Shown: positions 10,654 to 55,493, counted from the first letter of the stretch. The stretch: 64,000 nt of DNA from Gammaproteobacteria bacterium (GCA_965277715.1 OZ255836.1:3328001-3392000); one strand, 5' to 3'. Made by a program: numbers and translations. Notes: generated by a model from the sequence alone, not told the origin.

Positions 10654-10671
10654 TGCCTTGACCCCTTTTTT

Positions 10672-11439
10672 CTCCACACACACAATTTTATCATGCAGAC
10701 AATCCGCTTTGGTAACGGCATTAAAACAAGCAAGGCCATCCGATATCACTGTTGTACCCGGTTCAATATGCTGCTTCGCCCACGCTTCAATCGCGTCACT
10801 ACGAAATCCCTCAACAACATTTAATTTTATGCGTATAGGTTGGCTGTTGGCTGTCGTTTCAACCGCCGCTACAAATGCTGTTTTCCCTTTTGCACCGCGT
10901 CCTCTCTTGCAACCTGAATGCTCACCCCCTAAATAAGCATCATCGAGTTCAACTAATCCTGATAACGGTTTTGATTCATCACGTTCATACATCACTTGCA
11001 TGATCTTGTGCTTTATATGCCAAGCGGCTTTATAGGAAATACCTAGATGCCTGTGTAACGCCATTGCAGACAGGCCTTTTTTATCTTGGGCAATCAAATA
11101 CAGTGCTTGAAACCAACAGGTTAACGGGCGTTTTGTGGCTTGAAAAATCGTACCGGCTGTAATCGATGTTTGGTGGTGGCAGCGATAGCACTGTTGGAGC
11201 TTACGTGTGGTTAATTGACACCCTTTATTATGTCCACAATTGGAACAGATAAACCCTTGGGGTCAGCGCCAATTGTAGCGTGCTGTAAAACACTGTTCCT
11301 CTGTGCCATAGGACTCAATGAAACGACTTAAGCTAAGGCCCATTTGAAACTGTACCGTATTGCGAGACATCATAAAAACCAATTAATTCAATAGCTTGTA
11401 TTTTATCATAGAGTAAGCTTAGCTTGGGTGGTAACTAGG
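10672..11439 (-). pseudogene. IS1595-family transposase, internal stop and 3'-truncated
   Basis: ATG 11370, Zn-ribbon, VELDDAYLGG, ISDG motifs; in-frame TGA near 11265; CCTAGTTACC end at 11439; cut at the TGACCCC motif. Confidence 0.85.
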
Positions 11440-11539
11440 AAATATTATGATCGATAATTTGGAAATTTATACGATTAGAAAATGGCACGCTACATTTTCA
11501 TCTTTTAAATAGTAAATAACTAGCCTGACCCCTTTTTCC

Positions 11540-12162
11540 ATCACCCTGGCCTCGGCATCCCGGTGGCGTTTTAGCTTAAACAATGCATCGCTACGGCCTG
11601 TGTGATAGTGGGCATTCTGGTGGTGAAGCATCAAGCCTTCACCGCCGTTGTCTACCAGTGTATCCAGTATCGCCATTAACGCCTTGTGACTGTCTACCCG
11701 AAACTGCTTTACTGCACGTAAATGCGGGTTATTGGCCACCTCGACGATATGATTAATTTTTTTAATGCGATCAGAAAAATTCCCCACAGCCCCCGGCAGT
11801 TCAAATACATAATAATTAACGAACCGCCATTCATCTTCGATAGGTGCACGTTTTTTAACGGTGCTGACAGTGCGCTCGAAACTGTTTCTGTCGATCCATA
11901 ATTCGCCGTCGAGTGGTGTGTTGGGGAAATTCCGGGTAAACCAATCCGGTGGGTAAAAGCGGTTGCCCTGTCTGGATACCAGGAATGTCCCGTTCCAATA
12001 GGCACGCACCCCGTCGAGTTTTTCGCTCACCCAGTAATCCTGTGCATTGACACCGGGGTGAAATTTTTTAGCGTGTATCAGTTCTGGGGCCGTGTTGGCC
12101 AGTGCTGTACCCAACAGCAGGGCATTGAATAGCACAGCGATGAGGCAATCAATCCTTTTCAT
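11540..12162 (-). pseudogene. Second DNA ligase copy lacking the C-terminal OB domain
   Basis: Nearly identical to copy 1 up to DAEARV, then reads into the GGGGTCAGG repeat. Confidence 0.9.
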
Positions 12163-12284
12163 GGTGCGTCCTTTGGTTCGGTTGCGTTGTGATAGGCACA
12201 CCATAATGCCATAGAACAATGAAAAATCCGAATTGTTGGCTACACTCAAGAGACACTTTGTTCCGGTTGGTAAGGGGAAAGCCT

Positions 12285-12821
12285 GTGAAAGGTATTGTGT
12301 TTACATTACTTAATGAAATGGTCGAAGAACAGTTTGGGCTTGAAGCGTGGGATCAATTAATTACCCAGTCGGGATCAGACGGTCTGTATATATCAACTGA
12401 GACGTATACCGATGAAGAACTGATGCGTTTGGTGGCGACAGCCAGTGAGATGACGGGTATCGCCGTAAATGACCTTGTCCGGGCATTTGGCACGTATATG
12501 TTTCCTCATTTTTACGCGAAATACCCGGTTTTTTTTAAACCCGATATGACGTTAAAATCTTTTCTATTAACCGTCGATAGGGTTATTCATGTCGAAGTGC
12601 GAAAACTGTACCCGGACGCTGGGCTGCCCAATTTTGACTATAAGGATGAGAACGATAACGAGTTGACGATGATCTACAGCTCACCGAGGAAGCTGTGTGC
12701 GTTGGCGGAAGGGTTGATTGCCGGAGCGGCCAAGCACTTTGGCACGCAATACACAATGGAACACACGGTTTGTATGCACAAGGGTGATGATTGTTGCCAT
12801 TTGAAAATGACTCTGGGGTAA
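12285..12821 (+). CDS. H-NOX protein, copy 2
   Basis: One aa difference from copy 1 (FGAY vs FGTY). Confidence 0.9.
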   Translation: MKGIVFTLLNEMVEEQFGLEAWDQLITQSGSDGLYISTETYTDEELMRLVATASEMTGIAVNDLVRAFGTYMFPHFYAKYPVFFKPDMTLKSFLLTVDRVIHVEVRKLYPDAGLPNFDYKDENDNELTMIYSSPRKLCALAEGLIAGAAKHFGTQYTMEHTVCMHKGDDCCHLKMTLG

Positions 12822-12828
12822 GTGAACG

Positions 12829-13788
12829 GTGGAAATTGCTACACTACAGCGCGCTTATGAGCGGGAGAAGGCCAAGAGGGTGCAAGCGGAATCATTGTTG
12901 GAGGATAAGTCGCGTGAGCTGTTCCTTTCTTACGAGGCGTTACAAAAATCCCACAATGAAATAAAGCAGGCTCACGAGGAATTAATACTCAAGCAGAAGC
13001 AGTTGGTTCAATCTGAAAAGATGGCCTCGCTGGGTATTATTTCAGCGGGTGTCGCCCACGAGATAAACAACCCGATTGGGTTTGTGCTGAGTAATATTGT
13101 TACGCTTGGCGAAAATGTTGCTGTATTTACTACGCTTTGCGAAAAGCTTGGTGTGCTTATTGACAAATGCAATGCCGGAGAGACAGTGGCTGAGGCGATT
13201 AATGCGCTGGCTGCATTTTCCGAACAGGAGGATTTGGCATTTCTTATTGAGGATGGCCAAACACTGATCGATGAAACCACAGAGGGTATTGTGCGTGTGC
13301 GCGATATTGTTGCCGGGTTAAAATCTTTTGCGCGTGTTGATACCGGGGAAAAAGAAAGTGCGAATATTAACGAATGCATCGAGTCCACGTTAAAAATACT
13401 GGGTAATCAGACAAAATATACCTGCACGGTGGAAAAACAATTAGGTGATATTCCTGTTATTCACTGTTTTCCCGGTAAGCTTAATCAGGTGTTTATGAAT
13501 CTTATTGTTAATGCAGTGCACGCTGTCGGTGATGGCGGGGTGATTCGCATTGCGTCGGTATGGGAAAATAATCAGGTGGTTATTAGGATTGCTGATAATG
13601 GTAAGGGGATTCCGGCTGAAAATATCCCCAATCTGTTTACGCCGTTTTTTACCACTAAACCGGTTGGGGAGGGGACGGGGCTTGGGCTGTCGATATCAAT
13701 GGGGATTGTTGAAGAGCATGGTGGTGCTATTGATGTTAACAGTGAGGTGGGTAAAGGTACGGTATTTACTGTAAGGCTGCCTGGTTGA
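12829..13788 (+). CDS. Histidine kinase, copy 2
   Basis: Protein identical to 9098-10057. Confidence 0.9.
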   Translation: MEIATLQRAYEREKAKRVQAESLLEDKSRELFLSYEALQKSHNEIKQAHEELILKQKQLVQSEKMASLGIISAGVAHEINNPIGFVLSNIVTLGENVAVFTTLCEKLGVLIDKCNAGETVAEAINALAAFSEQEDLAFLIEDGQTLIDETTEGIVRVRDIVAGLKSFARVDTGEKESANINECIESTLKILGNQTKYTCTVEKQLGDIPVIHCFPGKLNQVFMNLIVNAVHAVGDGGVIRIASVWENNQVVIRIADNGKGIPAENIPNLFTPFFTTKPVGEGTGLGLSISMGIVEEHGGAIDVNSEVGKGTVFTVRLPG

Positions 13789-13822
13789 TTATTTAGGGGG
13801 GCTTTCAATTATGATGTTTCAC

Positions 13823-14384
13823 CACTGCTGTCCCGTTAACTTTCATAGTAACTTCATTTGATTAATATCAGGCATACCATCTTGTATTGGATCACCACGG
13901 AGTAATGCCATGAAGTTATGCCTTGGCGTCAGGCTTTGGCAGCGTTGCAGTAATCTCCCAAAGCGTGCCTCGTATAATTCGCATGGCTTGTTCTCATTTT
14001 ACCCACTGATAAACCTTCACTTAATCGCTGTACAGCGAGTGTGTTGACAGCTTGTTGGCAGGACTGATCTGCACTCATTGTTTGGTATAAAAACAGCGAT
14101 AAGGTGTCTAGAGGAGGATAGCGACGCGCTCGAAAATCCGGTTGTAATTCTTCCAGTTTCGTAAGTAACTGAGAGGATGTCAGCAAGTGATAAAAACTCA
14201 ATGCATCCGAGGATTGAGCTCGGCTTTTGATGCGACGTTGAAGAATGTTGACTTTTACATTACTCTGCATGATAGCTGGTTCCTGTGGGATAAAGGGTAT
14301 TTGTGTTGGCAATAAATAACCTACCATAGAACCAGCTTTTTTTGTAATTACTTCAAATACTTACAGCTTAAGGAAGTGCCATTC
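13823..14384 (-). mobile_element. Duplicated IS4 remnants (element C right end plus element B left end)
   Basis: Copy of 10092-10653. Confidence 0.8.
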
Positions 14385-14404
14385 AGGATTGACCCCTTTT
14401 TTCT

Positions 14405-14472
14405 TTGCCGTAAAAACGCTGTATATCCTCATTAACCCCTTGGTCTACATAGTCTGTGTAACGTTGACAGTT
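14405..14472 (-). pseudogene. About 70-bp internal fragment of the RAYT-like gene
   Basis: Reverse complement matches about 19410-19476 (TGTCAACGTTACACAGACTATGTAGACCAAGGGGTT...). Confidence 0.85.
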
Positions 14473-14475
14473 TCA

Positions 14476-14937
14476 TTACTTTGACTTGGCAACTAATACA
14501 CCAAGGCCAACAATTATTGCACCTACGATAACCCCTACCCAAAACTTGTCCACTTTTATTTTTTCTGAAATAACCTCTATTTTTTGATGTAGCAACTCAG
14601 GGGCGGAATTTATGTCTATTGCTTGGTGGTTGCCTACCCATCCGGGTAATTCTTCAGGGGTAATATCTATTAGTACTGGGATGATGTTTTTTTCTTGAAT
14701 TAGAGATGCCCCAAGTTCTTGCTGGACAGCAGCTGATTTTATTGAGCTTTTAGTTGCTAAAAAGAACACCCATTTAGCTTCATCTAAATGTTTGAATACT
14801 GCGTCAGTCCAGTTACTACCTGGCTTGATAGATATACCAGCTAAGAAAGTATCGATGCCAGCCATTGATGTCATGGTATGTAAATTTTTAGCTAGAGATT
14901 CATCTTTTACCGAATAACTAATAAATGCTGTTGCCAT
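14476..14937 (-). CDS. TIR-domain protein with C-terminal membrane helix (cassette gene)
   Basis: AFISYS...PGSNW...SAAVQQELG; hydrophobic tail FWVGVIVGAIIVGLGVLVA. Confidence 0.85.
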   Translation of the reverse strand: MATAFISYSVKDESLAKNLHTMTSMAGIDTFLAGISIKPGSNWTDAVFKHLDEAKWVFFLATKSSIKSAAVQQELGASLIQEKNIIPVLIDITPEELPGWVGNHQAIDINSAPELLHQKIEVISEKIKVDKFWVGVIVGAIIVGLGVLVAKSK

Positions 14938-14962
14938 GTGATGCCCTTATTTTGTTGAAGAA

Positions 14963-15010
14963 ATATAACGCTGCGTTCACCGGCTTGTCCGGTGCAACGC
15001 CTTGTTATAC
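14963..15010 (-). other. attC site (short)
   Basis: Minus strand GTATAAC-AAGGCGTTGCACCGGACAAGCCGGTGAACGCAGC-GTTATAT, imperfect palindrome right after the HEPN stop. Confidence 0.8.
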
Positions 15011-15012
15011 TA

Positions 15013-15519
15013 TTATCTGGTCATGGTCTCAGCAAGACAATGGATTACCTCTTTTCCATCCTCATAAGCCTGAACCACCTCTCTGTATGTGGTAATTGAA
15101 TTGATTTTCCCTTCATGAGCAAAGTCGTTTCGCCAAGTGATTAAATTCGCATATGAGTTTGCTAAGTCTCTCTTATTTGTAACCAAGTAGGATTTAGAGG
15201 CCTTACCGAGTTTTCTCTTAAACCTTTTTTGATACTTATCGCCAAACTTTGAGATATATTCATCACGGATGACGTTTATTTTTATTTTCCCATTTATCCT
15301 ATGAAAATATGCTTCTGTAAAGTTGCCCAGCACCTTGTGCTTTCTTTGTGAAAAATTAATAAATATTTCTTTTACTGCTTGTTCATATACAGTAACAGCA
15401 GCGACTGACACAAAGCCTACATATTTGGCTTGCAATAGCGAGTCAGTAATGGATGGCATTACTGTATCAAGGTGCGTAATGACATCATCAGCATGCTGAA
15501 AATGATCTACGTAACTCAT
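15013..15519 (-). CDS. HEPN-domain protein (putative RNase)
   Basis: RNDFAH (Rx4H) motif; abuts the DUF262 gene. Confidence 0.8.
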   Translation of the reverse strand: MSYVDHFQHADDVITHLDTVMPSITDSLLQAKYVGFVSVAAVTVYEQAVKEIFINFSQRKHKVLGNFTEAYFHRINGKIKINVIRDEYISKFGDKYQKRFKRKLGKASKSYLVTNKRDLANSYANLITWRNDFAHEGKINSITTYREVVQAYEDGKEVIHCLAETMTR

Positions 15520-16605
15520 TTAGCCACCAAATAAAACGCATTTAACACGTTTCGTTCTGCTACTAACTGTTTTAATATCTGTAGTATTCACGCTTGTATC
15601 TTCTAAAAATTTTTCATCAACAATAAGTTTATTAAATCTTTCTGAAAGACTGAATTTAGATAGTTTGGAGTGGTTTTCAATCATTACAGACATAACAGAA
15701 TCCAAAGCAGAAATGTTAATTGGACCTCTTAAATTGAATGGTTTTTCTCCTAACTCAGAAATTATTTGCTCCGTGACTTCAGGAAATATCTTTAGAAAAT
15801 TAACCACTTTTTTAGTATTACCGCCTTGATGCTTCTTCATTGCCTTATTGAGATATTCTTTCATCGGCTTTTCGTATCCACCTTGTGAGCCAACAAGAGA
15901 AAATATCCTTAACAAAAGTTCGACATCTTTTTGGTGTTTATCTAGATTTTTCCTACCCAGGATCAAACGCCAGTTTGGATCTCTATTAGCTTCTTTTAAT
16001 AGACTGCTAAATTTACCTCGGAACACGCAGTTGCGAATCTCTTGAGGTTTTAACGGAGTTCCGCCAGTATTCAACCTTTCAAATATATGATAAGCACTGG
16101 TGCTCTCTCCAATCGGATTGAGCTGCCTAATATTAATGGCTCGCAATACTGCTTGTTTCAACTTCCTTTGGTCTGACTCACCCAAGTCTTCAAATTTTTT
16201 ACCATTGTAAGGATTGCCATCGCCAAGCCCTGAGAGTCTAAAAACCTGCCGTTTACCATGTGTACTTTCTTTTCCAAAGTATCCTTCCATAAAAAAAACG
16301 ATACTTAAAATCCTCTGCTGTCCATCAATAACAGAATTCATACTATTCTCGTCAATGTAGAAAAATACAGGCGGTACAGGTAGTCCGGCTAAAAAGGAAT
16401 CTACTAAAAGAGATGATTGCTTTATTCCCCAGACAAACTCGCGTTGGTAGTCCGGAATTTCAATATCTCCATCTTTCCACATCTGAGCAATACCGGATAA
16501 TGTATAGTCTGATGGGTAGCTTGCAATATCGTATTGAACCGTAACCGCATCCTCATCTTCTTCCACTTCGGTAGCTACGTCATCTTCCGCGAATTTTAAA
16601 TTCAT
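15520..16605 (-). CDS. DUF262 (ParB-like/GmrS-like) domain protein
   Basis: PDYQREFVW, IDGQQR, FERLNTGG motifs. Confidence 0.88.
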   Translation of the reverse strand: MNLKFAEDDVATEVEEDEDAVTVQYDIASYPSDYTLSGIAQMWKDGDIEIPDYQREFVWGIKQSSLLVDSFLAGLPVPPVFFYIDENSMNSVIDGQQRILSIVFFMEGYFGKESTHGKRQVFRLSGLGDGNPYNGKKFEDLGESDQRKLKQAVLRAINIRQLNPIGESTSAYHIFERLNTGGTPLKPQEIRNCVFRGKFSSLLKEANRDPNWRLILGRKNLDKHQKDVELLLRIFSLVGSQGGYEKPMKEYLNKAMKKHQGGNTKKVVNFLKIFPEVTEQIISELGEKPFNLRGPINISALDSVMSVMIENHSKLSKFSLSERFNKLIVDEKFLEDTSVNTTDIKTVSSRTKRVKCVLFGG

Positions 16606-16645
16606 ATATATAACTTATTAAAAAAATTTCTTAATCGAACCGTAA

Positions 16646-16707
16646 GCATAACGCCTACCATCAGCGGCGCGCACCTTTGGCGCGTCCGCTGGATGGTTTT
16701 GTTAGGG
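16646..16707 (-). other. attC site
   Basis: Minus strand CCCTAAC-AAAACCATCCAGCGGACGCGCC...GCGCGCCGCTGATGGTAGGC-GTTATGC. Confidence 0.88.
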
Positions 16708-18065
16708 CCTGATTTCAACTGCAAGAACACCACCATCAACTCGAGACGTGACTTGGCCGACATTTGGATTAGCATGGCTTATTGCTAGCGACTCTACCAA
16801 TTTGCTGCCTTTCATCTTGTTGACTTGAACGGAGTATCTTTCTTTCGGTTGATGTAATCCAGGTGGTGTGGCTAGGTTAAAAGAAAACGAAAGTTCTCCT
16901 GGGATGCCATTTTTTGAAACTTGGACAGGGCTAGTGTTTGTGTTTGGTAGGACTCTTTTCTTATTAGCGTTATATTGTAATTTAGCCAGCCTCTGCCCTT
17001 ACAACCTAACCAGGTTTTAAACGGGCCCCGGATGGCGCCACAACCACCAACCTTACCTCTCGCTAATACACAACGATTTCCGCTTGGTACCGTACCTTCA
17101 AAAGCAGAATGGCAGCTTTCGCCGGTTACTGAGACATCTGCTCTGATCAATGTTCCAGGGCCACTAATACACCATTCGCGGTCTACCCTATAGCTATCAT
17201 CACATATGCTACTTCCAGTATTTGCAAAAGGCTGTACTGGCTCTGCTACCTCTCTAAATGCTGTGTGCTCTACATGAGTAGAACCTGAAAGCTCATAGCG
17301 AAAAGGGGGTTCAAGAACAGTCAAACCAATTGGGCTTGAGCTAGCTGTGGCTGTATTTTCATGGCAACCGAGAACCCCCCATAACCACAAAGAACGGCTT
17401 ATTTCTTCAAGATTATCTACTTTAACGCTAACAATAACGTCGTTTTGATCTGCGGATTCCACTACAGATTTCGATATCTCAACAGATATTGCTGAGTCAA
17501 GGCGTTCAATAATTCTTGCCTCTATACCATTGACCAAAACCTTTAGGTTTTCTCCTTGGCGTAAAAAATTACCTTTTAGTGTTAATTTAGGAATGTCTTG
17601 GCCCACTTGTAATGTTGGAGGAAAGGAAGCAACAACTCTCGGCTTAGAATCTCTGCAAGGTAACGAATAACTTGTGTTGTATGCCAATATGTCCGCATCG
17701 ACTATAGTTGTTCTTGCTTCTTCACCAGCTTTCGCAATTATTTTCTGAGTTGCGACTTTCATGGTTCGAGTTAACTCTTGAGCATCTTCTACTAGCCTTA
17801 ATTCTGCCCCTTCGAGTTTATCTACAGTGTATTCCAGTTTGTGACCTAGCATTCTGTCAATGTCAGCTAGTACATTTTGCGCATTAGCCTGTAATGAGTT
17901 TCCTATGCTTTGAATGTCTTCGGTTCCTTCGTACATTGCTTCTCGAAATGACTCTATAAATCCTTCCAAAGTACTTTTTATAGCTAGAATAGTCAGAGGT
18001 TCCGCGGATACGGTATTTGAAGCCATTAATGTAATAGCGCAGATAAATAGACGTAATTTTTTCAT
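16702..18065 (-). pseudogene. Secreted hypothetical cassette protein with a frameshift near 16945
   Basis: Signal peptide; track ORF stops at 16872 but an alternative frame runs ...TNTSPVQVSKNGIPGE...VLAVEIRP* to the TAA in the attC core. Confidence 0.7.
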
Positions 18066-18339
18066 TTGATCATTTCTACTTTGGTTTTTTTATTACCCTA
18101 ACAGTATTTTACAAAGGCCAAAGACCTCTGTAACATTATTATGAGGTGACCTCTTAATTCTTCCCAAGTATTGAGAAATTTTTGTAAGTGGCTGATTCAT
18201 ATCACTATATTTTTCTCATTTTGATACTAAAAACAATACAGAAGTCTTTGATATTTAGTATTATTGTTTTTTAGCTACAGTTAGAGTAGCAGAAAATTTC
18301 AGGGGCAGCCAATTTTAATTAATTTTTTTAATTCTTAAC

Positions 18340-18490
18340 CTTGAAAGCGATGGTATCGACTACGCTATTGCTGGTGACTATGCTGTAGCGTTACACGGGG
18401 TTATCCGTGGCACGATTTCGGCAGGCGTTGGCAAACCATGATCAGAATATCGAGGACATAAAGACCTTACGTTTGCTGAAAGAAGACGAT
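18340..18490 (+). pseudogene. Nucleotidyltransferase-like gene remnant
   Basis: ESDGIDYAIAGDYAVALHGVIRGT fragment and ...QNIEDIK... tail. Confidence 0.45.
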
Positions 18491-18510
18491 GAAAACAAAA
18501 AGAACAAAAA

Positions 18511-18850
18511 GGGGTCAATCGTATTTAATATTTTTCAAACGGTTGCAAACCTGCTCAAACACGCCCTTCAAGCCGCCGTCTGACAGCCCACTCTTTACAT
18601 AATCAATTGCAGGAGAAAGGCTACTAACACGACTATATCCAAACATATCAACCAGCGTTTTTAACGGCATATCCCCCAATTGCTGACAACAATATATCGC
18701 TACTTTACGAGGCAGATTCGCCCGTTGTCTCCCCCGCTGTCGCGTAAGTACATCACTCGCGTTAACGCCAAACACCGCTGCCACTGCATCGACTATAGCT
18801 GCACCCTTTGGCTTGTTCGTCACAATATGGGACAAGTCCCCCGATATGTG
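18511..18850 (-). pseudogene. C-terminal part of a second, divergent RAYT-like transposase with its terminal repeat
   Basis: RANLPRKVAIYCCQQLGDMPLK homologous to the 19.6-19.8 kb region; stop codon inside ATTGACCCC. Confidence 0.8.
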
Positions 18851-18855
18851 GAAAA

Positions 18856-19882
18856 GGGGTCAGGCTAGTTATTTATCATAGATTATGTCAATATCACCCC
18901 ATGCCAAGACCTCACCGCATAGAATATGAAAACGCCTTCTACCATATAATAAACCGTGGTCGGGAGCGTAAGACGGTTTTTCATAGCGAAGCTTACTACC
19001 AAGCGTTTCTCGCCACATTGACCGAAGCCGCAGAGCGTTTTCACGCCGTGATTCACGCTTATTGCCTAATGGGCAATCACTACCACCTACTGCTGGAAAC
19101 ACCTGATGCTAACCTCAGTCGCATTATGCAGCATATCGATGGTGTCTATACACAGCGTTATAACCGCCTTAAAAAAACGGATGGTTCTCAGTTTAGAGGG
19201 CGATTTAAAGCCATCAATGTCGATGAAGATGCGTATCTATTACCCCTGTCTCGCTATATACATAGAAACCCCATTGAGACTAAACGACCTCTGGTTCAAT
19301 CGCTAAAGAACTATTCCTGGTCTAGTTACCCGGCTTACATAGGAAAAGCATTGAGCCCTACTTGGTTGTGTCGTGATCGTGTTTATGCCTGTTTACCGGT
19401 GAAAAACGACTGTCAACGTTACACAGACTATGTAGACCAAGGGGTTGATGAGGATATACAGCGCTTTTACGGCAAAAATAACCTATCGACGGTGTTAGGT
19501 GACAAGGTGTTCCGCTCACAGTTGGCCGAGTACAAAGAAAGCCAGAGTGGCGTTGATGTGCGGCCCCAATTGCGGGAAAAGGTAGCCAGCAGTGTGATAG
19601 TAAAAACGGTGGCAAATTGTTGCCGAGTGAGTGAAGGCAGTGTTTCGGGTAGTCAAGGTAAGGGGGGTAGCGCGAACATTCCCCGCAAATTGGCCATGTA
19701 CTACTGCCAGCGGTTTGGTGATATGTCGTTAAAGGCGATTACTCAACATTTTGGGTTAAGTCACCCTGGTGGTGTGTCGAGTGCAATAGCTCACGTCAAG
19801 AAGGCGCTGGACAAGGGAGAACTTAAAGAGGTGATGCATCAAATTGAAAATCAGTTGAATAGTAAATAACTTGCCTGACCCC
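18856..19882 (+). mobile_element. Inverted-repeat-bounded RAYT-like element
   Basis: GGGGTCAGGCTAGTTATTTA ... TAAATAACTTGCCTGACCCC (19/20 inverted match). Confidence 0.9.
18901..19869 (+). CDS. HUH Y1 transposase (RAYT/TnpA-REP-like) with C-terminal DnaA_C-like HTH
   Basis: MPRPHR...YHIINRG, YCLMGNHYHLL (HUH), RYIHRNP (catalytic Tyr), WSSY. Confidence 0.92.
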   Translation: MPRPHRIEYENAFYHIINRGRERKTVFHSEAYYQAFLATLTEAAERFHAVIHAYCLMGNHYHLLLETPDANLSRIMQHIDGVYTQRYNRLKKTDGSQFRGRFKAINVDEDAYLLPLSRYIHRNPIETKRPLVQSLKNYSWSSYPAYIGKALSPTWLCRDRVYACLPVKNDCQRYTDYVDQGVDEDIQRFYGKNNLSTVLGDKVFRSQLAEYKESQSGVDVRPQLREKVASSVIVKTVANCCRVSEGSVSGSQGKGGSANIPRKLAMYYCQRFGDMSLKAITQHFGLSHPGGVSSAIAHVKKALDKGELKEVMHQIENQLNSK

Positions 19883-19905
19883 TTTCTTAGCGGGTCAATA
19901 TATGA

Positions 19906-21596: not shown

Positions 21597-21601
21597 GCAA
21601 A

Positions 21602-21692
21602 GGGGTCAGGCTTATTATTCACCATACAACGACTAATACGGATAAAAACAGTGATTTCCAGCAAGAAGTATAGGAAATAACTGCATTGACCC
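21602..21692. repeat. Miniature non-coding element with RAYT-type ends
   Basis: GGGGTCAGGCTTATTATT...AAATAACTGCATTGACCC. Confidence 0.7.
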
Positions 21693-21900
21693 GAATGGCA
21701 CTTCCTTAAGACGTAAGCAACTGATAGTAAAGAGTTTATTTATTATTTCTAAGAAAAAAAATGATATTTTGAAAGTTGCCGCCAATGATAACCGGGATAG
21801 TTTTACAAATATTGCTTTCAAGAACCATATGCCAAGTTATCTGAACCAAGCATGTAGTACCAATACTTTCAAATACTTACAGCTTAAGGAAGTGCCATTC
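21693..21900. mobile_element. MITE of IS4 element B (208 bp)
   Basis: TIR GAATGGCACTTCCTTAAG at both ends; inverted copy at 54759-54967. Confidence 0.9.
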
Positions 21901-21997
21901 TTGCCTGCCCCCTTTCTTTCGGACACCCTGCAATTACAACTCGTCAGCTAACAAGCCTATTTTAGCGGGCGCTTCAAACAAAATATTAATATCGAAA

Positions 21998-46152: not shown

Positions 46153-47544
46153 TCAATCCAGTAGGCAGCGAACTACATCCGGCAGGCGCTCGACCAAATA
46201 CAAAGGCAGCGAGGCCAAAGTATAACGCGCTCGTTGCGACTGATTGCCGGATTTGATCGTTGCCTCGGTGCTATGCACCGAAGGCAGTGAGGCGTCGAAA
46301 CGTACCGCCAGTGGCAATTGTTTTTCCCCCATAAACTGGTGCAGCGACTTCAAGCTGCCGGTTGCACCGGCTTTTACTTCGATAGGGATAATCTGCCCTT
46401 CTAGCGCGACGACAAAATCCAGCTCGGCGTTATAGGAGCGACCCTCGCGCAGCCAATAAGTTAACTCTCGGTTGGGTGAGTCAGTCAATAGCGCTTGTAG
46501 ATGCTGCCCTACGAATTGCTCGGCGACAGGGCCGTCGTTAACTCCCTGTGTTTCGTTCAACTGGGAAAAGGCGCGCCAATTGAGATCGCAGATGGTGTTC
46601 ATCAACCCCACGTCCAGAAATAGCAGTTTGTAGACATTTTCCTTGAGGGTTGATTGCAGCGGCAAGCCTGTGCAGTGACTGTGAATCACTTTATTAACGA
46701 CTCTGGCCATGCAAAGTAATTCCAAGTCGCGTTTGATCGTTGCGCTCTGGTCGTCGCGGGAAAAGTGACTGTATTTGACCTTTGTGCCCACGCTGCGAGC
46801 AGCTATGTTGAAGACGTTGAGAATCCGGTTGCGGTCGCGGTTACCGATATATTTAGGGAAGTCGTCTCGATACGTTTCAATTATCGATGTGTGAGTTTCA
46901 CTCACCGGTCCTAGGCGCCGTTGTTCAGCATAAGCGGCGACGGCCTCGGGCATACCTCCGACAAAACAATACTCGTGTAACAGCCGTCGCAATCGTTGAT
47001 GGACTATCGGACCGATCAAATCGCCCGGCATGTAAGTGTTAACAATATGTGCCAATTTTTTTTCATCTAATGCCTGAAGAAACTCTGAAAATGTCATTGG
47101 CCCCATCGGTAAATAACGAATTCTGCCGACAGGCATCGAGAATCTGCGATCAGACAGTGCGAATTCAAGCAGTGAGCCAGCACAAATCAAAGGTAACTCT
47201 GGGCGCTCCTCATAAAAGTAGCGCAGCGCGGATATGGCTGCGGGCGCAGCTTGTATCTCATCAAGAAACAGCAATGAGTTTTCATCGACGCTCGCCATTC
47301 GTGGCAGTGCTTCGATTTGTTGCAAAATATAGTGAGGATCGTTGCTGGCGAACACCTCTCCGAGCTGTGGGTAGCGCTCTAAATTGACCTCGATCAGATT
47401 TCGATTCGATTGCTCGGCGAATAGCCTGACAAGGGTAGATTTACCGACCTGGCGGGCGCCTCTAATAACCAGCGGTTTGCGCGTTTTGCTCTGTGCCCAG
47501 TGTTGTAAAAAGCCTAGTTGGTGTCGTTTCATGGTCTCTGTCAC
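46153..47544 (-). CDS. AAA_14 ATPase with DUF4143 / C-terminal PD-(D/E)xK-like domain
   Basis: GARQVGKS, LDEIQ, GGMPE, ELDFV...IEVK. Confidence 0.88.
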   Translation of the reverse strand: MTETMKRHQLGFLQHWAQSKTRKPLVIRGARQVGKSTLVRLFAEQSNRNLIEVNLERYPQLGEVFASNDPHYILQQIEALPRMASVDENSLLFLDEIQAAPAAISALRYFYEERPELPLICAGSLLEFALSDRRFSMPVGRIRYLPMGPMTFSEFLQALDEKKLAHIVNTYMPGDLIGPIVHQRLRRLLHEYCFVGGMPEAVAAYAEQRRLGPVSETHTSIIETYRDDFPKYIGNRDRNRILNVFNIAARSVGTKVKYSHFSRDDQSATIKRDLELLCMARVVNKVIHSHCTGLPLQSTLKENVYKLLFLDVGLMNTICDLNWRAFSQLNETQGVNDGPVAEQFVGQHLQALLTDSPNRELTYWLREGRSYNAELDFVVALEGQIIPIEVKAGATGSLKSLHQFMGEKQLPLAVRFDASLPSVHSTEATIKSGNQSQRARYTLASLPLYLVERLPDVVRCLLD

Positions 47545-47585
47545 CCATTTTCCTTAAGCACTATAGCAAAGATTTATACCACTTA

Positions 47586-47640
47586 TATGATTTTATGGGT
47601 ATCTTTTCAGTTTTTCTGTATGATTTTATGGGTATCTTTT
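47586..47640. repeat. Two 22-bp direct repeats upstream of the AAA gene
   Basis: TATGATTTTATGGGTATCTTTT at 47586 and 47619. Confidence 0.85.
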
Positions 47641-47744
47641 AATACTTACTTTACCTAAAAACACCGATAGTGACTCAACAGGCCTTGTATCTAAAGAAAA
47701 GGCTCAGGTCATAAGCGACTACGGCAGATGGTCAACAATGTGCT

Positions 47745-48092
47745 TCAGCAGGAATACACCACGGGAATTCGAGGTGTTTTGCGTGAACGAACGGCATCCA
47801 CATTTTCCAGTGGGCGTTTCAATACACGGGTATATAAAAAAACTAAGGCATTAAATGCCTGGTTTTGCGTGGCCGCAGCCACATTGGCTTTTGTTGCCAA
47901 ATATCCCAGAAAATCCTCAGTCTTACGCTCTGGTTCAACAAACAGTGCTTTCCGTGCCTGCATTGGGTGAAAACGTATAAAGCGGACAATCCAATTGCAG
48001 TAAGCGCGCTCGGTATGAATAGAATAATGGAGGCGTCTCATGAGGTCACGCATTTCCGTAAGCAGTTTTTTGTCCTTTGTTGAAGTTGACAT
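47745..48092 (-). pseudogene. intI: Integron integrase, N-terminal domain only
   Basis: RRLHYSIHTERAYCNWIVRFIRFH...FLGYLA...VAAATQNQAFNALVFLY...RIPVV; catalytic domain absent; divergent from cassettes. Confidence 0.88.
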
Positions 48093-48636: not shown

Positions 48637-48695
48637 ATTCGGAACGGGAATATATGAAATGAAAATTTTTGCATCTTATGGGGTCAAGATCTTAT

Positions 48696-48940
48696 GGGGT
48701 CAGGCCAGTTATTCACTGTTCAATTGACTTTCAATCTGGCACATGACCTCTCTTGCCTTGGCTGAACAAAATACTGCTTTCGCTCACCCGGCAACAACTT
48801 GCCACAGTGATTACTATCAAGTGGCTGGCCAACTTTTCCCGCAACTGTGGCCGCACATCAAGGCCACTCTGACTTTCTTTGTGTTCGGCCAAGCATAAGC
48901 GAAAAGCTTTGTTGTCTAACACAGTCGAGACGTTATTTTT
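48696..48940 (-). pseudogene. Partial, internally deleted RAYT-like element
   Basis: GGGGTCAGGCCAGTTATTCAC end plus part of the C-terminal coding region. Confidence 0.85.
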
Positions 48941-48943: not shown

Positions 48944-49903
48944 GGGGTCAGGCCAGTTATTCACTATTCAATTGACTTTCAATCTGGTACATCATCTCAT
49001 AGAACTCTCCGGTGTCTAACTGCTTCCTAATATAGGCTATTGCGCTCGATACACCACCAGGATGACTTAGACCGAAAATAGTGAGTAATCGCTTTTAGTG
49101 ACATACCGCTAAACCGCTGGCAGTAATACATCGCCAGTTTACGGGGGATGTTCACACTGCCTCCCTTGCCTTGACTGAACAAAATACTGCTTTCGCTCAC
49201 CCAGCAACAACTTGCCACAGTGATTACTATCAAGTGGCTGGCCAACTTTTCCCGCAACTGTGGCCGCACATCAAGGCCACTCTGGCTTTCTTTGTGTTCG
49301 GCCAAGCATAAGCGAAAAGCTTTGTTGTCTAACACAGTCGAGACGTTATTTTTGCCGTAAAATCGTTGTATATCCTCATCAACCCCTTGATCTACATAAT
49401 CTACGCAGCGTTGATAGCTGTTTCGCGCCGGTAAACAGGCATAAACGTGATTGCGGCATAACCAAGTGAGGCTCGATGCCTTTCCTATATAAGCGGGGTA
49501 ACGAGACCAGGGATAGCTCTCTAGCGATTGAACCAGTGGCCGTTTGGTTTCAAGGGTTTCTATGAATATAGCGAGACAGTGGCAATAGATAGGCGTCTTC
49601 ATCGACATTCAGGGCCTTAAACCGTCCTCTAAACTAGGAGCCATCGGTTTTTTTAAGACGGTTATAACGCTGTGTATAAACTCCATCGACATGCTGTATG
49701 ATGCGACTGAGGTTAACATCCGGTGTTTCCAGCAGTAGGTGGTAGTGGTTGCCCGTTAGGCAGTAAACTTCGCCATGAAAAATCGCCTTATGCTCCCGAC
49801 AACGGTTCATTATGTGGTAGAAGGCGTTTTCGTATTCTATGCGCTGAGGCCTTGGCATTGGTTGGTATTGGTACAGCCTATACTAAATAACTAGCCTGAC
49901 CCC
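48944..49903 (-). mobile_element. Degenerate RAYT-like element with both ends
   Basis: Split ORFs 49634-49858 and 49027-49608; both inverted repeats present. Confidence 0.9.
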
Positions 49904-49977
49904 CTTTTTTTGAACGCTAAAAAATGAATGAACGATTAAAAAATTGTTGAATTTAACTGCGGGTCCATATATGACCC

Positions 49978-51537
49978 CAATGGCACTAAGTTAAGCGGTT
50001 TTAGCGGGTAAAATAAACGAAAAAATAACTGTAATAAACCCAATAAAAAAGGCTGAAATGTTATAATTTTGTATGAAAAATACAACCTTATTTCTACCCG
50101 GATTCAACATCCAAACACTCCGCAAAACACCCCGTTCAGCCATTCAAATCTTGCACGATAAGATAGCAAAAATACGTCACAAATCACTGAGTGAACTACC
50201 TGTTTTTCTTGGCGATATTATACCCACGAATATTCTTAAACCGAATGATTTTGGTGTGAATAGTCGTCGACGTATTTTCAGTAAAGAAAATACTTTCTGG
50301 TTGTTTTTTTCACAAATAATGAACGCCGATGGTGGCTGTAAAGAAGTCGTTAGACAACTGCAAAATGTCGCCCACAACCAAGGCATTCCCATACCTTCAT
50401 CATCCACCTCCGCCTATTGCCAAGCACGTAAAAAACTACCCATGGACGATCTTAAAAACGTATTTTCAGGGACGTGTCGATTATCGCCACCTCAACCCAA
50501 AGCGCTCCAAGGTCGACCGGTTATCGTTGCCGATGGGACAGGCCTATCCATGCCCGATACGCCCGCGAATCAACAAACTTACCCACAACCGAAATCACAA
50601 AAACAGGGATGCGGATTTCCTCAAGCACGGCTTTTAGCTTGTTTTAATCTTTATAGCGGTTTAATTCTGAGCTATGCACTAGGAAATAAAAAAAGTCATG
50701 AGCTAAGACTTTTAGAAGAACAATGGGATACCTTCAATGAAGGTGACATTTTCTTAGGTGATAAAGGTTTTTGCAGCTTCTACGATATTGACTGCCTCTC
50801 TCGACGAACGGTTGACAGTGTCGTTACATTGGCGCGGAGAACGCCCAGCACTGCCTCCCAGGCCAAAAAGAAGATAGCCGATAATGACCTTCATATTGAA
50901 TGGCAAAAACCTAAACACACAAAAGCGACCCGTTACACAAAAGAGCAGCATAGCGACCTTCCAAAGACCTTAACTTTACGACAAATACACGTCAGTATTG
51001 TACGAAAAGGATTTAGGACGAACCATTTTTATATCATCACGACACTACTTGATGCTCAGCAATATCCCGCTATAGAAATTATCGACCTCTATGCACAGCG
51101 CTGGAATGTGGAACTGTATTTTCGCAATATTAAAACCACCATGGGTATGGATATATTACGCTGTAAAACACCTGATATGGTTCGTAAGGAAATCATCATG
51201 CACATGATTGTTTACAACACGATCAGGCACATCATGTGTGTCGCTTCATACCGACATGACACACCGGTTGATCGGCTAAGTCTTAAAGGTGTTTTGCAAA
51301 CACTCCGACAAAGCACTTCATCACTTGGTAGTGGGCAGAGTCCAGCACAAAAAAGACGGCAATATCTTGATTATTTATATGCAGCGATTGCGGATGATCG
51401 TGTGCTTCATCGACCTTTTAGATTTGAACCAAGAGTGGTAAAAAGGCGACCTAAACCACGGGCATTAATGACTCGACCAAGGAACGTTTTAAAAACTGAA
51501 TATTGGCAAGCTAAAGCGGCTTAACTTAGTGCCATTG
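49978..51537 (+). mobile_element. Complete IS4-family element A (1560 bp)
   Basis: TIR CAATGGCACTAAGTTAAGC; 11-bp TSD ATATATGACCC (49967-49977 and 51538-51548). Confidence 0.95.
50073..51524 (+). CDS. IS4-family DDE transposase
   Basis: SAYCQARKKL, ADGT, GDKGF, YAQRWNVELYFRNIK (YREK signature). Confidence 0.95.
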   Translation: MKNTTLFLPGFNIQTLRKTPRSAIQILHDKIAKIRHKSLSELPVFLGDIIPTNILKPNDFGVNSRRRIFSKENTFWLFFSQIMNADGGCKEVVRQLQNVAHNQGIPIPSSSTSAYCQARKKLPMDDLKNVFSGTCRLSPPQPKALQGRPVIVADGTGLSMPDTPANQQTYPQPKSQKQGCGFPQARLLACFNLYSGLILSYALGNKKSHELRLLEEQWDTFNEGDIFLGDKGFCSFYDIDCLSRRTVDSVVTLARRTPSTASQAKKKIADNDLHIEWQKPKHTKATRYTKEQHSDLPKTLTLRQIHVSIVRKGFRTNHFYIITTLLDAQQYPAIEIIDLYAQRWNVELYFRNIKTTMGMDILRCKTPDMVRKEIIMHMIVYNTIRHIMCVASYRHDTPVDRLSLKGVLQTLRQSTSSLGSGQSPAQKRRQYLDYLYAAIADDRVLHRPFRFEPRVVKRRPKPRALMTRPRNVLKTEYWQAKAA

Positions 51538-51558
51538 ATATATGACCCCCTTTTTTTC

Positions 51559-51666: not shown

Positions 51667-52137
51667 GACCTACGCCATATAAAAACGACAATGAAGATGC
51701 ACACTTTCCGTTGTAAGACGCCAGAAATGGTTGAGAAGGAAATGTGGGTGCACATATTAGCTTACAACCTTATTCGCTTATTAATGGCGCAATCTGCCTT
51801 ACTAGTGGACATACTGCCTCGACAGATAAGTTTTAAGCATACGTTACAAATTTGGGTAGCGTATCGTTATCAGAAAGGCGGTAGCCCTCTGGGTAGTGAT
51901 AAGGTGTTGGCGCTATGTGCGTTGATTGCAGAAAACTGTGTGGGTAATCGACCGGGGCGTATTGAACCAAGAGTGGTTAAACGAAGGCCCAAACCGTATC
52001 CTTTATTGATGCAGCCAAGGGACGTGGCCAGAAGTGTTGTTAAAAAATATGGCCATCCCAAAAAACAGAAATAGGTCATTTACAATGAAAGTACTTCCAT
52101 ATTTTTCATGTACTTAGAGCTTAAGGAAGTGCCATTC
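51667..52137 (+). mobile_element. C-terminal transposase fragment and right end of IS4 element B
   Basis: FRCKTPEMVEKE...RPGRIEPRVVKRRPK; end CTTAAGGAAGTGCCATTC. Confidence 0.85.
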
Positions 52138-52340
52138 AGGTCATACCCATAAATTTGGCTATGAATTCAGAAGTAATTACCTTTAGATGTGTTTCTCAAA
52201 ATGCAAGACAGAGCATATTATTTAAGCAAAAATTTGAAAGAGATGAATCTTCATCTATAGGCTGGAAACCTGTTTGGAATGACAGAGTAGAAAAAGCCAT
52301 ATCCTCACTTGAAGGGTATAGCAGGTATTAGGAACTAATT

Positions 52341-52559: not shown

Positions 52560-52579
52560 AAAGCATAACAAAGCACTCC

Positions 52580-52720
52580 CTAGGCGACTATACAGAATGG
52601 CTTGTAGCAAACGCCCTAAGTCTAGAGTTAGAGAGCAATTCTAAAGCTGGGTATGATGGTGTTTGTAAAAATGGTGTTCGTGTCCAAATAAAAGGACGGC
52701 GAGTAACAAAAAATGGTTCT
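52580..52720 (+). pseudogene. PD-(D/E)xK-like nuclease gene fragment
   Basis: LGDYTEWLVANALSLELESNSKAGYDGVCKNGVRVQIKGRR. Confidence 0.55.
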
Positions 52721-53016
52721 TCCCCGATTATTGTGAAGCCACTGGTTCCATATCCCCCTGTGTCAGGCTAGTTGTTCCTCTCCCTAAATTGGGATTCAAT
52801 AAGTTTTTACAGGAGGCAAAAAGAGAGTGACATGGGTTATCCAATAGAAAGAAAGGCCCCTGTGTGTCAACCTCACCTCAAGCCACTATGATTTAAGATA
52901 ACATCTAAATCAGGGCAGATATCAAGAGTGAGAACAATGCCAAAACCTATATCAGATAAACCCCAGCCAGAGTCATGTGAGGCCAAGCCTGACCCGACAC
53001 GGGAGAAAAAGCTTAC

Positions 53017-53976
53017 GGGGTCAGGCCAGTTATTCACTGTTCAATTGACTTTCAATCTGGTACATCATCTCATAGAACTCTCCGGTGTCTAACTGCTTTC
53101 TGATATAGGCTATTGCGCTCGATACACCACCAGGATGACTTAGACCGAAAATAGTGAGTAATCGCTTTTAGTGACATACCGCTAAACCGCTGACAGTAAT
53201 ACATCGCCAGTTTACAGGGAATGTTCACACTGTCTCCCTTGCCTTGGCTGAACAAAATACTGCTTTCGCTCACCCGGCAACAACTTGCCACAGTGCTTAC
53301 TATCAAGTGGCTGGCCAACTTTTCCCGCAACTGTGGGTGCACATCAAGGCCACTCTGGCTTTCTTTGTGTTCGGCCAAGCATAAGCGAAAAACTTTGTTG
53401 TCTAACACAGTCGAGACGTTATTTTTGCCGTAAAATCGTTGTATATCCTCATCAACCCCTTGATCTACATAATCTACGCAGCGTTGATAGCTGTTTCGCG
53501 CCGGTAAACAGGCATAAACGTGATTGCGGCATAACCAAGTGAGACTCGATGCCTTTCCTATATAAGCGGGGTAACGAGACCAGGGATAGCTCTCTAGCGA
53601 TTGAACCAGTGGCCGTTTGGTTTCAAGGGTTTCTATGAATATAGCGAGACAGTGGCAATAGATAGGCGTCTTCATCGACATTCAGGGCCTTAAGCCGTCC
53701 TCTAAACTAGGAGCCATCGGTTTTTTTAAGACGGTTATAACGCTGTGTATAAAGTCCATCGACATGCTGCATGATGCGACTGAGGTTAACATCCGGTGTT
53801 TCCAGCAGTAGGTGGTGGTGGTTGCCCGTTAGGCAGTAAACTTCGCCATGAAAAATCGCCTTACGCTCCCGACCACGGTTCATTATGTGGTAGAAGGCGT
53901 TTTCGTATTCTATGCGCTGAGGCCTTGGCATCGGTTGGTATTGGTACAGTCTATACTAAATAACTAGCCTGACCCC
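53017..53976 (-). mobile_element. Degenerate RAYT-like element with both ends
   Basis: Near copy of 48944-49903 with the same lesions. Confidence 0.9.
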
Positions 53977-53980
53977 CTTT

Positions 53981-54217
53981 TCTTCTTCATCGATAGCGAA
54001 AAGTAACTACCAAAAAAATAATTGGCATCGTAAACAGAATTTATATTCACTGCATGATATTGAATATAATAATTTGAATGACGCAATTAATAAACACTGC
54101 AAGACTGATTTTGATACAAATTCAAACTTTAAAAGACTGAGTGAATTTATCGCTATAACTAGAGAGTCGGCACAAGTTTCTATTGGGAACTGGCAGCATG
54201 CGTTAAAAGACTGCTAA
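53981..54217 (+). pseudogene. 5'-truncated cassette gene
   Basis: Open frame SSIAKSNYQ...WQHALKDC* from the repeat junction to the TAA within attC. Confidence 0.65.
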
Positions 54218-54289
54218 CAAGGCCATAAAATTCGCTCCCTACAGTCGCCGGACGCTCGCAAGCTCGCGCCGTTTATGGCGGCGTTATGT
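54212..54289 (+). other. attC site
   Basis: TGCTAAC-AAGGCCATAAAA...GTTTATGGCGGC-GTTATGT. Confidence 0.85.
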
Positions 54290-54302
54290 GTAGAAATTAA
54301 TA

Positions 54303-54608
54303 ATGAGCAAAGAATCAATATTTATAATAAGTCCATTTATTTTTGGACTCATGCTTTTAAGTATTAGCCTTTATGACCTGCATCAATTTGATGTGGGTGG
54401 TATAGCGGTTACTGAGATGCTGCGAAGAGAAATGCCATTTTTTGTTCTCGGTATTTTGAGTAGCTTTTGTTTGTTTGTAAAATCAATATATTGGCTTTGG
54501 ACGAGATGCTGGATTAAATCATTCGTTTCTGTGTTTAGCATTCTTTCATTTTTTGTTTTATTTGCAGTAGGCGGGTCATTGGGGGCTGCTTATCTTAATG
54601 CAACTTAG
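54303..54608 (+). CDS. Small membrane protein (cassette gene)
   Basis: Three hydrophobic segments; between GTTATGT and ACATAAC (54617). Confidence 0.75.
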   Translation: MSKESIFIISPFIFGLMLLSISLYDLHQFDVGGIAVTEMLRREMPFFVLGILSSFCLFVKSIYWLWTRCWIKSFVSVFSILSFFVLFAVGGSLGAAYLNAT

Positions 54609-54746
54609 CAGGGTACACATAACAAACCGTTGAAGTCGGACAGTCACGGTGTTTGTCAAGGTAGTTGTCCGTTTTACTATGCTACTTGCTTTTCAATTCC
54701 ATTGTGCTTTTGTCTCATGGCCAAGCCTTCCCTTTCCGAGTCTTAT

Positions 54747-55493
54747 GGGGTCAGGCCAGAATGGCACTTCTTTAAGCTGTAAGTATTTGAAAGTATTGGT
54801 ATTACGTGCTTGGTTCAGATAACTTGGCATATGGTTCTTGAAAGCAATATTTGTAAAACTATCCCGGTTATCATTGGCGGCAACTTTCAAAATATCATTT
54901 TTGTTTCTTAGAAAGAATAAATAAACTCTTTACTATCAGTTGCTTACGCCTTAAGGAAGTGCCATTCGGGTCAGGCCAGTTATTCACTGTTCAATTGACT
55001 TTCAATCTGGTACATCATCTCATAGAACTCTCCGGTGTCTAACTGCTTCCTGATATAGGCTATTGCGCTCAATACACCACCAGGATGACTTAGACCGAAA
55101 ATAGTGAGTAATCGCTTTTAGTGACATACCGCTAAACCGCTGGCAGTAATACATCGCCAGTTTACGGGGAATGTTCACACTGCCTCCCTTGCCTTGACTG
55201 AACAAAATACTGCTTTCGCTCACCCGGCAACAACTTGCCACAGTGCTTATTATCAAGTGGCTGGCCAACTTTTCCCGCAACTGTGGGCGCACATCAAGGC
55301 CACTCCGGAAGCGATCTGCAGCTTCGGCCAATGTAGTGAGAAACGCTTGGTAGTAAGCTTCGCCATGAAAAATCGCCTTACGCTCCCGACAACGGTTGGT
55401 TATGTGGTAGAAGGCGTTTTCGTATTCTATGCGCTGAGGCCTTGGCATCGGTTGATATCGACACAATCTATACTAAATAACTAGCCTGCCCCC
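54747..55493 (-). mobile_element. Internally deleted RAYT-like element with a MITE inserted in its terminal repeat
   Basis: ORF 55020-55466 fuses N- and C-terminal parts, HUH/Y core missing. Confidence 0.85.
54759..54967. mobile_element. MITE of IS4 element B (209 bp)
   Basis: TIRs GAATGGCACTTC; 11-bp TSD GGGTCAGGCCA (54748-54758 and 54968-54978). Confidence 0.93.

Follow-up and report, generated by a model that had tools for sequence, protein, structure and literature searches.

A palindromic half-site target probably underlies the fixed 11-bp register of IS4-subgroup insertions at TIRtron tips and elsewhere

The 64,000-nucleotide stretch of Gammaproteobacteria bacterium DNA analysed here (GCA_965277715.1 OZ255836.1:3328001-3392000, "the window") contains nine junctions at which the end of an IS4-family insertion sequence (IS) or of a miniature inverted-repeat transposable element (MITE) meets an 11-bp flank with a conserved core. 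These junctions very probably reflect IS4-subgroup insertion sequences, and MITEs carrying their ends, that land at a palindromic half-site target. The target consensus is a 13-bp palindrome, G/GGGWC-N-GWCCC/C (slashes mark the borders of the 11 bp; bare form GGGGTCAGACCCC), flanked by an A-rich stretch upstream and a T-rich one downstream. Among the landing sites are the tips of TIRtrons, which consist of a TIRYT gene between inverted repeats with the motif GGGGWSAS (Di Nocera et al. 2013, PMC3733652; Quentin et al. 2018, PMC6006769). A first-pass annotation of the window had described two IS4 elements and a MITE that insert in fixed register into the repeat of an element it called a RAYT (for REP-associated tyrosine transposase, where REP is a repetitive extragenic palindromic sequence), and had seen in this an IS4 lineage that specifically parasitises the ends of an HUH element with a programmable-looking target preference.

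All nine junctions read exactly as written in that annotation, with the 11-bp register that it had claimed. The flanking 11-mers are TGCCTTGACCC (10654-10664), AGGATTGACCC (14385-14395), TGCATTGACCC (21682-21692), TTGCCTGCCCC (21901-21911), ATATATGACCC (49967-49977, repeated at 51538-51548), AGGTCATACCC (52138-52148) and GGGTCAGGCCA (54748-54758, repeated at 54968-54978; reverse complement TGGCCTGACCC), and the two that occur twice, ATATATGACCC and GGGTCAGGCCA, are the perfect target duplications of two insertions. At positions 6-11, five of the seven distinct 11-mers read exactly TGACCC, from which the remaining two (TGCCCC and ATACCC) deviate by one base; the chance of an exact hexamer at a fixed register is about 1/4096 per site. 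The IS ends themselves are defined by inverted repeats of 18-25 bp rather than by their 9-mer AATGGCACT, which by itself is not distinctive in the window (21 matches at up to one mismatch, 20.4 expected from shuffles); one of its ten exact matches, at 35018, lies inside a transporter gene and is due to chance.

The elements at these junctions are of two IS4 types, as the first-pass annotation had proposed, plus two copies of a MITE. The intact IS (49978-51537, plus strand, 1560 bp) has perfect 19-bp terminal inverted repeats, CAATGGCACTAAGTTAAGC, and encodes a transposase of 483 aa (50073-51524) that matches Pfam DDE_Tnp_1 (PF01609; 3.7e-26, 92.5 bits, cut-off 23), Pfam Nterm_IS4 (PF13006; 27.9 bits, cut-off 25) and the NCBIfam IS4 model NF033592 (205.6 bits, cut-off 115) and carries the Y-(2)-R-(3)-E-(6)-K (YREK) signature as YAQRWNVELYFRNIK at residue 340. 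Members of the IS4 subgroup are described as having ends of the form '-AATR--------WTW----', direct repeats of 10-13 bp and a size of 1400-1650 bp (PMC2266710 Table 1); CAATGGCACTAAGTTAAGC at both ends fits this form, 1560 bp falls within the size range, and the 11-bp target duplications of the window (49967/51538 and 54748/54968) fall within that of the direct repeats. By its Pfam and NCBIfam scores, its YREK signature, its terminal-repeat consensus and its direct-repeat length, the element is therefore a member of the IS4 family and IS4 subgroup. In a plasmid collection, the best relatives of the transposase are only 32-38% identical (in Nostoc, Acaryochloris and others, annotated 'IS4 family transposase'), with no named ISfinder relative among the matches there.

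The second IS4-type element survives only in pieces. Its 3' remnant (51691-52137, plus strand; flank AGGTCATACCC) comprises the right end and a C-terminal transposase fragment of 127 aa that is 40% identical to residues 357-475 of the intact transposase and matches NF033592 at positions 301-332. A probable 5' remnant (10198-10653, minus strand; flank TGCCTTGACCC) has its end repeat at 10621-10653 and an N-terminal transposase-like open reading frame (ORF) of 132 aa with weak transposase matches (E 1.8e-4 in NCBIfam; E 8e-5 for collinear residues 65-107), and it recurs in the second copy of a 3.7-kb duplicated segment (13929-14384, minus strand; flank AGGATTGACCC). Since their terminal repeats are of the second type, these 5' pieces ending at 10653 and 14384 probably belong to the second element. 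Both MITEs, which have no ORF, likewise carry its ends: 18 terminal bases are identical on both sides, and this end corresponds to 52105-52137 and 10621-10653. MITE copy 1 (54759-54967, 209 bp) is framed by the duplication GGGTCAGGCCA, and MITE copy 2 (21693-21900, 208 bp) lies between TGCATTGACCC and TTGCCTGCCCC; the copies are 93-96% alike (I7 96% and I11 93% in the repeat comparison). What argues that movement may have been recent are the perfect duplications together with the near-identical copies.

The register is a clade-wide property and not a local one. We collected relatives from a genome collection, taking the best 80 (49-59% identical, from many phyla) of 149 stretches that encode a related transposase, and compared their flanks where the two ends were present with 21 bp or more of flanking sequence on either side, counting as a duplication at least 9 of 11 matching positions. 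Of 59 such relatives, 37 have a recognisable duplication, and 31 of these 37 show G[AT]CCC at one end of it. The register is strong outside the window as well; the full 8-mer STSWCCC/C is present in 16 of the 37 duplications, and the base immediately before the duplication is G in 27. A metagenome scan for the MITE-type end of the window gave at least 120 stretches, with 135 flanks among the matches listed, to which the following counts refer. GGGWC occurs 22 times at position 1 and not more than once at any other position. For GWCCC, the counts are 31 at position 7, 9 at position 8, which correspond to 12-bp duplications (genome G003 has one such case too), and no more than two at any further position. 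In 52 of the 135 flanks, a perfect half-site lies in register, and the summed consensus reads GGGTCWGACCC, then C, then a T run. The right copy of ATATATGACCC in the window is likewise followed by C and a T run. At one place in genome G003 (L084/L085, G003:C1:263861-263899), exactly 11 bp, GGGAGCGTCCC, separate two IS ends that point towards each other; these 11 bp form a near-perfect GGGWC-N-GWCCC palindrome, and the arrangement suggests that one copy inserted right beside another.

A shared register could also be inherited, if the flank went back to a single ancestral insertion with subsequent duplication or in fact belonged to a longer IS end. The junctions at 10654 and 14385 would agree with this in lying at the edge of the 3.7-kb duplication with a common 15 bp, TGACCCCTTTTTTCT, after the variable five bases. 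Those five bases differ at every junction, however, and the sequence beyond the motif is unrelated between sites. Moreover, two insertions have perfect duplications of their own in direct rather than inverted orientation, which places the 11 bp outside the element, and the same register recurs in unrelated genomes and metagenomes. Contradicted by both the direct duplications and the register outside the window, common descent of the flanks is highly improbable, and the earlier view that the conserved core marks a target preference rather than an inherited flank is borne out.

The juxtaposition of a constant core and a variable stretch is also what gave the preference its programmable look. If the variable five bases were set by a sequence or RNA carried by the element, as in the bridge-RNA elements of the IS110/IS1111 type, they should follow the element; this appearance is all that speaks for such targeting. 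The enzyme is a DDE/YREK transposase of the IS4 family and not of the DEDD type of IS110, and identical IS copies (L024 = L025 over 1554/1554 positions and L066 = L067 over 1557/1557) stand beside variable halves that differ, which contradicts a guide encoded in the element. The MITE copies, though 93-96% alike, also differ in their variable halves, and the "variable" half is a weaker mirror image of the core. Programmable targeting is hence barely conceivable here, and this part of the first-pass annotation has to be given up.

Palindromic motifs, a fixed stagger and targets used in either orientation are to be expected from a symmetric DDE transpososome. In the mechanism that we propose, a symmetric complex of the DDE transposase would cut the target with an 11-bp stagger and read a half-site at each cut, with G/GGGWC-N-GWCCC/C between A-rich and T-rich arms as the preferred target. 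One good half-site would suffice, so that the duplicated 11 bp start with GGGWC or end with GWCCC while the other five bases vary, which would account for the "fixed register", and those five bases would be the weaker mirror half of the palindrome rather than anything encoded by the element. The tip of a TIRtron combines an outer G, a perfect half-site and an A/T run; since the GGGGWSAS repeat supplies this half-site, TIRtron tips, miniature pairs of terminal inverted repeats (TIR pairs) and similar hairpins would become hot spots. Insertion would take place 1 bp inside the tip, and the duplication would leave the TIRtron side with its terminal 11 bp intact. Judging from the sequences, the half-sites are presumably read by the transposase protein itself; the chemistry is likely cut-and-paste by analogy to IS10, IS50 and IS231A, and the MITEs are probably mobilised in trans.

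The HUH element of the window is a TIRtron, in which we found no difference from published ones, and not a RAYT element as it had been labelled. Its only intact TIRYT gene (18901-19869, 322 aa) lies in copy A (18856-19882, plus strand, 1027 bp) between inverted repeats AAAGGGGTCAGGCTAGTTATTTA and TAAATAACTTGCCTGACCCCTTT, which are 23 nt long, 96% complementary and about 1 kb apart, start with (AAA)GGGGTCAG and fit GGGGWSAS. The protein matches Y1_Tnp (PF01797; 5e-14, 52.9 bits, cut-off 23), with HYH as HUH motif at residue 60 and YIHRNP as YxHxNP motif at residue 119. In its C-terminal region, it matches Bac_DnaA_C (E 6.3e-7) at 29.8 bits, just below the Pfam cut-off of 31.5, and NCBIfam DnaA models match there too. 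TIRYT proteins of subclass 2.1 are described as having a C-terminal helix-turn-helix (HTH) of the Bac_DnaA_C, HTH_23 or HTH_28 type (PMC6006769). With its Y1_Tnp domain, HUH and tyrosine motifs, probable Bac_DnaA_C-like HTH and repeats starting with GGGGTCAG, the window element resembles the TIRtrons of PMC3733652 and subclass 2.1 of PMC6006769. In contrast, its score with the NCBIfam RAYT model REP_Tyr_transpos is 59.6 bits and thus below the cut-off of 80, and the element is flanked by inverted repeats without GTAG rather than by the GTAG-tagged REP hairpins that would be expected for a RAYT proper.

Three further TIRtron copies, all on the minus strand, have the same type of inverted repeats, which in the window begin with AAAGGGGTCAGGC (a TIRtron end reads AAAGGGGTCAGGCTAGTTATT). 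Copy B (48944-49903, 960 bp) is degenerate, with its HUH part (49634-49882) and HTH part (49027-49608) in different frames; copy C (53017-53976, 960 bp) is 95-97% identical to it over the repeat families reported; and copy D (54968-55500) is partial, with its outermost G (54747) split off by MITE copy 1. With a length 67 bp below that of copy A, a shortened stretch before the HUH motif and HUH and HTH parts out of frame, B and C look like decayed copies. The left tip of another partial copy (48680-48702) has a tandem duplication of ATCTTATGGGGTCA, through which the word GGGGTCA appears twice at a distance of 16 bp. Beyond the right ends of copies A and B lies a near-identical palindrome, GCGGGTCMATATATGACCCC (at 19888-19905 and 49959-49978, respectively), which may be either a miniature TIR pair or a separate repeat. 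In three other genomes, full-length TIRYT genes are flanked by repeats about 1 kb apart that start with GGGGTCA or GGGACAC.

TIRtron ends are real landing sites of the IS4-subgroup elements. Within the window, MITE copy 1 is inserted in TIRtron copy D, 1 bp in from its tip, both flanks of MITE copy 2 resemble TIRtron end repeats, and the intact IS is inserted in a GGGTCC-ATATA-TGACCC hairpin 57 bp beyond copy B (its left duplication copy forms the loop and 3' arm of GGGTCCATATATGACCC, 49961-49977), near-identical to a hairpin that follows copy A. A 92-bp miniature TIRtron considered at 21602-21693 was rejected, its outer arms not being reported as a pair by the repeat finder. Elsewhere, IS ends abut TIRYT genes or fragments at L062, L068, L032/L131, L033, L040 and L115 as well as at the metagenome loci L186 and L194, and in genome G003 an IS flank, GGGACACTGCCCCTATTTAA, equals the repeat of the local TIRtrons. 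An inverted partner within 1.6 kb is present for 16 of the 77 flanks that start with a half-site versus 19 of 1534 controls, and the 16 partners lie at 43-110 bp in 12 cases (miniature TIR pairs), at about 1 kb in 3 (TIRtron size) and at 1547 bp in 1.

Several observations weigh against landing at a palindromic half-site as a full account of the junctions, or against a tight link of these sites to TIRtrons. With respect to the junctions themselves, those at 10654 and 14385 are the edges of two copies of one 3.7-kb duplicated segment, and they stand for two different flanks but not necessarily for two independent transpositions; MITE copy 2 (21693-21900) has no duplication, since its two flanks differ. 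Among the relatives, 6 of the 37 validated duplications hold just 3-4 of the 5 half-site bases, and 22 of the 59 full relatives have no recognisable duplication, several of them with inverted rather than direct flanks (L013, L021, L024, L026, L066, L078 and others), for which recombination between copies that share one repeated target would be the simplest explanation. A perfect in-register half-site is absent from 83 of the 135 listed metagenome flanks, although the consensus is still visible in them. As to TIRtrons, a TIRYT gene was found beside the insertion at 6 of the 80 relatives' loci (tblastn), and a TIRYT ORF was found by profile beside 5 of the 66 relatives whose ends are paired (at least 1 kb of flank was present in 53) and in 5 of the at least 120 metagenome loci, among the matches listed. 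Conversely, just 2 of 28 TIRYT loci have an abutting IS end, and no Y1_Tnp gene was found in genome G001, though the IS copies there adjoin GGGACAGACCA. Eight of the 12 copies of GGGACAGACCA in this genome adjoin IS ends, and three empty ones lie within a longer repeat; at L257, L261 and L262 (G001:C1:2147563-2159650), a repeat of at least 55 bp (…CGATTTTGATCGGAAATGACC…) opens with GGGACAGACCA and exists in both empty and IS-occupied copies, and no Pfam families were found in 10 ORFs from L257 and L262. The TIRtron link is thus real but partial: TIRtron ends are favoured but are not the sole landing sites, and of the claim that an IS4 lineage specifically parasitises the ends of an HUH element, the landing stands and the specificity does not.

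A stronger form of this claim is that the IS4 clade recognises the TIRtron terminal repeat as such, beyond the 11-13-bp motif or in a TIRYT-bound or hairpin form, and co-evolves with it across phyla. The centre of the metagenome flanks is asymmetric, with A after GGGWC in 18 of 22 and T before GWCCC in 25 of 31 cases among the matches listed, and this fits the one-sided TIRtron word GGGGWSAS better than a free palindrome. The same reading draws on the enrichment of inverted partners, on IS ends at the exact tip of a TIRYT element in the window and at six other loci, on an identical 19-bp flank, GGGGACAGACCACGATTTT, that recurs at loci of different classes (L061, L067 and L069), and on the five TIRYT ORFs of the metagenome loci, which fall in 441 kb among the matches listed, as compared to about 1.4 matches per Mb in five genomes (28 in 23.9 Mb). 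Yet most sites have no TIRYT gene nearby, with genome G001 lacking one altogether, and in genome G003 the intact T-type TIRtrons L105 and L108 are unoccupied while IS copies sit beside lone GGGAC words, many in apparently unique sequence. Furthermore, the motif is palindromic on both sides as a symmetric enzyme predicts. We therefore regard recognition of the repeat as such as possible but rather unlikely. Equally tentative is the corresponding picture of an ancient, phylum-spanning IS4-subgroup clade that would be a dedicated hyperparasite of TIRtrons, with its read-out tuned to the GGGGWSAS tip (probably the site used by the TIRYT enzyme itself) and its IS elements and MITEs spreading where TIRtrons and miniature TIR pairs had prepared the ground. 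If it were true, landing 1 bp inside the tip with a duplication that restores the TIRtron end would amount to a three-level nesting of mobile DNA conserved across bacteria.

Palindromic 11-bp targets of IS4-family elements, site-specific members of the IS4 subgroup, insertion sequences in REPs and GGGGWSAS TIRtrons are all already known. The closest precedent for landing at a palindromic half-site is IS231A of the IS4 family, which duplicates 11 bp on insertion and whose target, GGGNNNNNCCC, is a palindrome (PMC2577343 Table 1). Our consensus palindrome extends this published motif. IS231A (IS231 subgroup, from Bacillus thuringiensis) shares with the window IS a DDE/YREK transposase of the same family, the length of the duplication and a palindromic target, but the window IS belongs to the IS4 subgroup, with an Nterm_IS4 domain and '-AATR' ends, and its clade has a longer half-site (GGGWC plus the outer G) and Gram-negative hosts together with environmental lineages. 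A 1987 paper in Gene reportedly describes a structural association of IS231A with the ends of another transposon, Tn4430, in whose terminal repeats IS231A is reported to insert; the carrier of the target in the window is a Y1/HUH TIRtron and not a Tn3-family transposon. Within the IS4 subgroup itself, some members are described as having 'spectacular apparent insertion specificity' with strongly conserved target arms (De Palmenaer, Siguier and Mahillon 2008, PMC2266710). By ends and repeat length these belong to the same subgroup as the window IS, and their consensus may already match ours; TIRtrons, which received their name only in 2013, are absent from the text passages of PMC2266710.

Nesting in short repeated extragenic palindromes as a safe landing place in multiple copies is shared with the REP-targeting insertion sequences ISRm22 (IS4 family), IS1397/ISKpn1 (IS3), ISPpu9, ISPpu10, ISPa11 and IS621 (IS110) (Tobes and Pareja 2006, PMC1525189). 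Their targets are classical REPs, however, whereas the target in the window is the GGGGWSAS tip of a TIRtron inverted repeat, and those of the IS110 family differ further in their enzyme and, for some, in the use of RNA guides. For TIRtrons, "IS4" has no occurrence in PMC3733652, the passages of PMC3733652 and PMC6006769 contain no IS landing on TIRtron repeats, and those of the RAYT papers PMC3686654 and PMC5581495 hold nothing further on TIRYT, DnaA or IS4. As far as these text passages show, no report links an IS4 clade to TIRtron tips, which makes this link modestly new. Mechanistically the case is ordinary, being the usual palindromic target choice of this transposase family at a site that is also the tip of another element's repeat.

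The 3.7-kb segment at the first two junctions is present twice (7809-10653 and 11540-14384) at about 99% identity and contains genes for H-NOX and for a histidine-kinase ATPase as well as the truncated 5' piece of the IS. Each copy ends at the IS end beside a different set of five bases, followed by the common 15 bp mentioned above; on its left, copy 2 directly adjoins a TIRtron-type end (…AATAACTAGCCTGACCCCTTTTT), and a look at the left edges of both copies gave no second IS end. The segment was copied next to two different TGACCCCTTTTTT sites. A transposase fragment of the IS1595 family (ISXO2-like; 10630-11097, minus strand) has its domain cut off at the IS4 junction, and the IS4 end or the duplicated segment therefore appears to interrupt an IS1595-family IS.

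Among the other genes of the window, a defence-type cluster (14476-23695) comprises a TIR_2 gene (14476-14937), a HEPN RiboL-PSP gene (15013-15519) and three GmrSD-type genes (15520-16605, 19995-21545 and 21998-23695). Two of the GmrSD genes have 3' ends with a common 300-bp stretch at 99% identity (19903-20202 = 21906-22205), which starts exactly at a TGACCCC/TGCCCCC word. A type I restriction-modification system (25463-32852) follows with two HsdS-type specificity genes, the first of them short, HsdM and HsdR, and then a YgjP-like metallopeptidase. Just upstream of the cluster of TIRtrons and IS elements lie an AAA_14/DUF4143 ATPase gene (46153-47544) and a short ORF (47745-48092) that has nothing more of a phage integrase than its N-terminal SAM-like domain, which hints at the border of an integrated element at 46153-48092. 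The remaining window is chromosomal housekeeping (dxs, nadC, radC and coaBC).

Landing of IS4-subgroup elements at a palindromic half-site reveals no new principle of targeting. It does provide a sharply defined natural target motif and an exact cut register for a widespread, little-studied branch of the IS4 family, for which the sole earlier motif of this kind that we found is that of IS231A. For annotation, it explains IS ends beside GGGAC/GTCCC or GGGTC/GACCC and warns against counting these words as part of the IS, and occupied and empty sites could mark the ends of TIRtrons.

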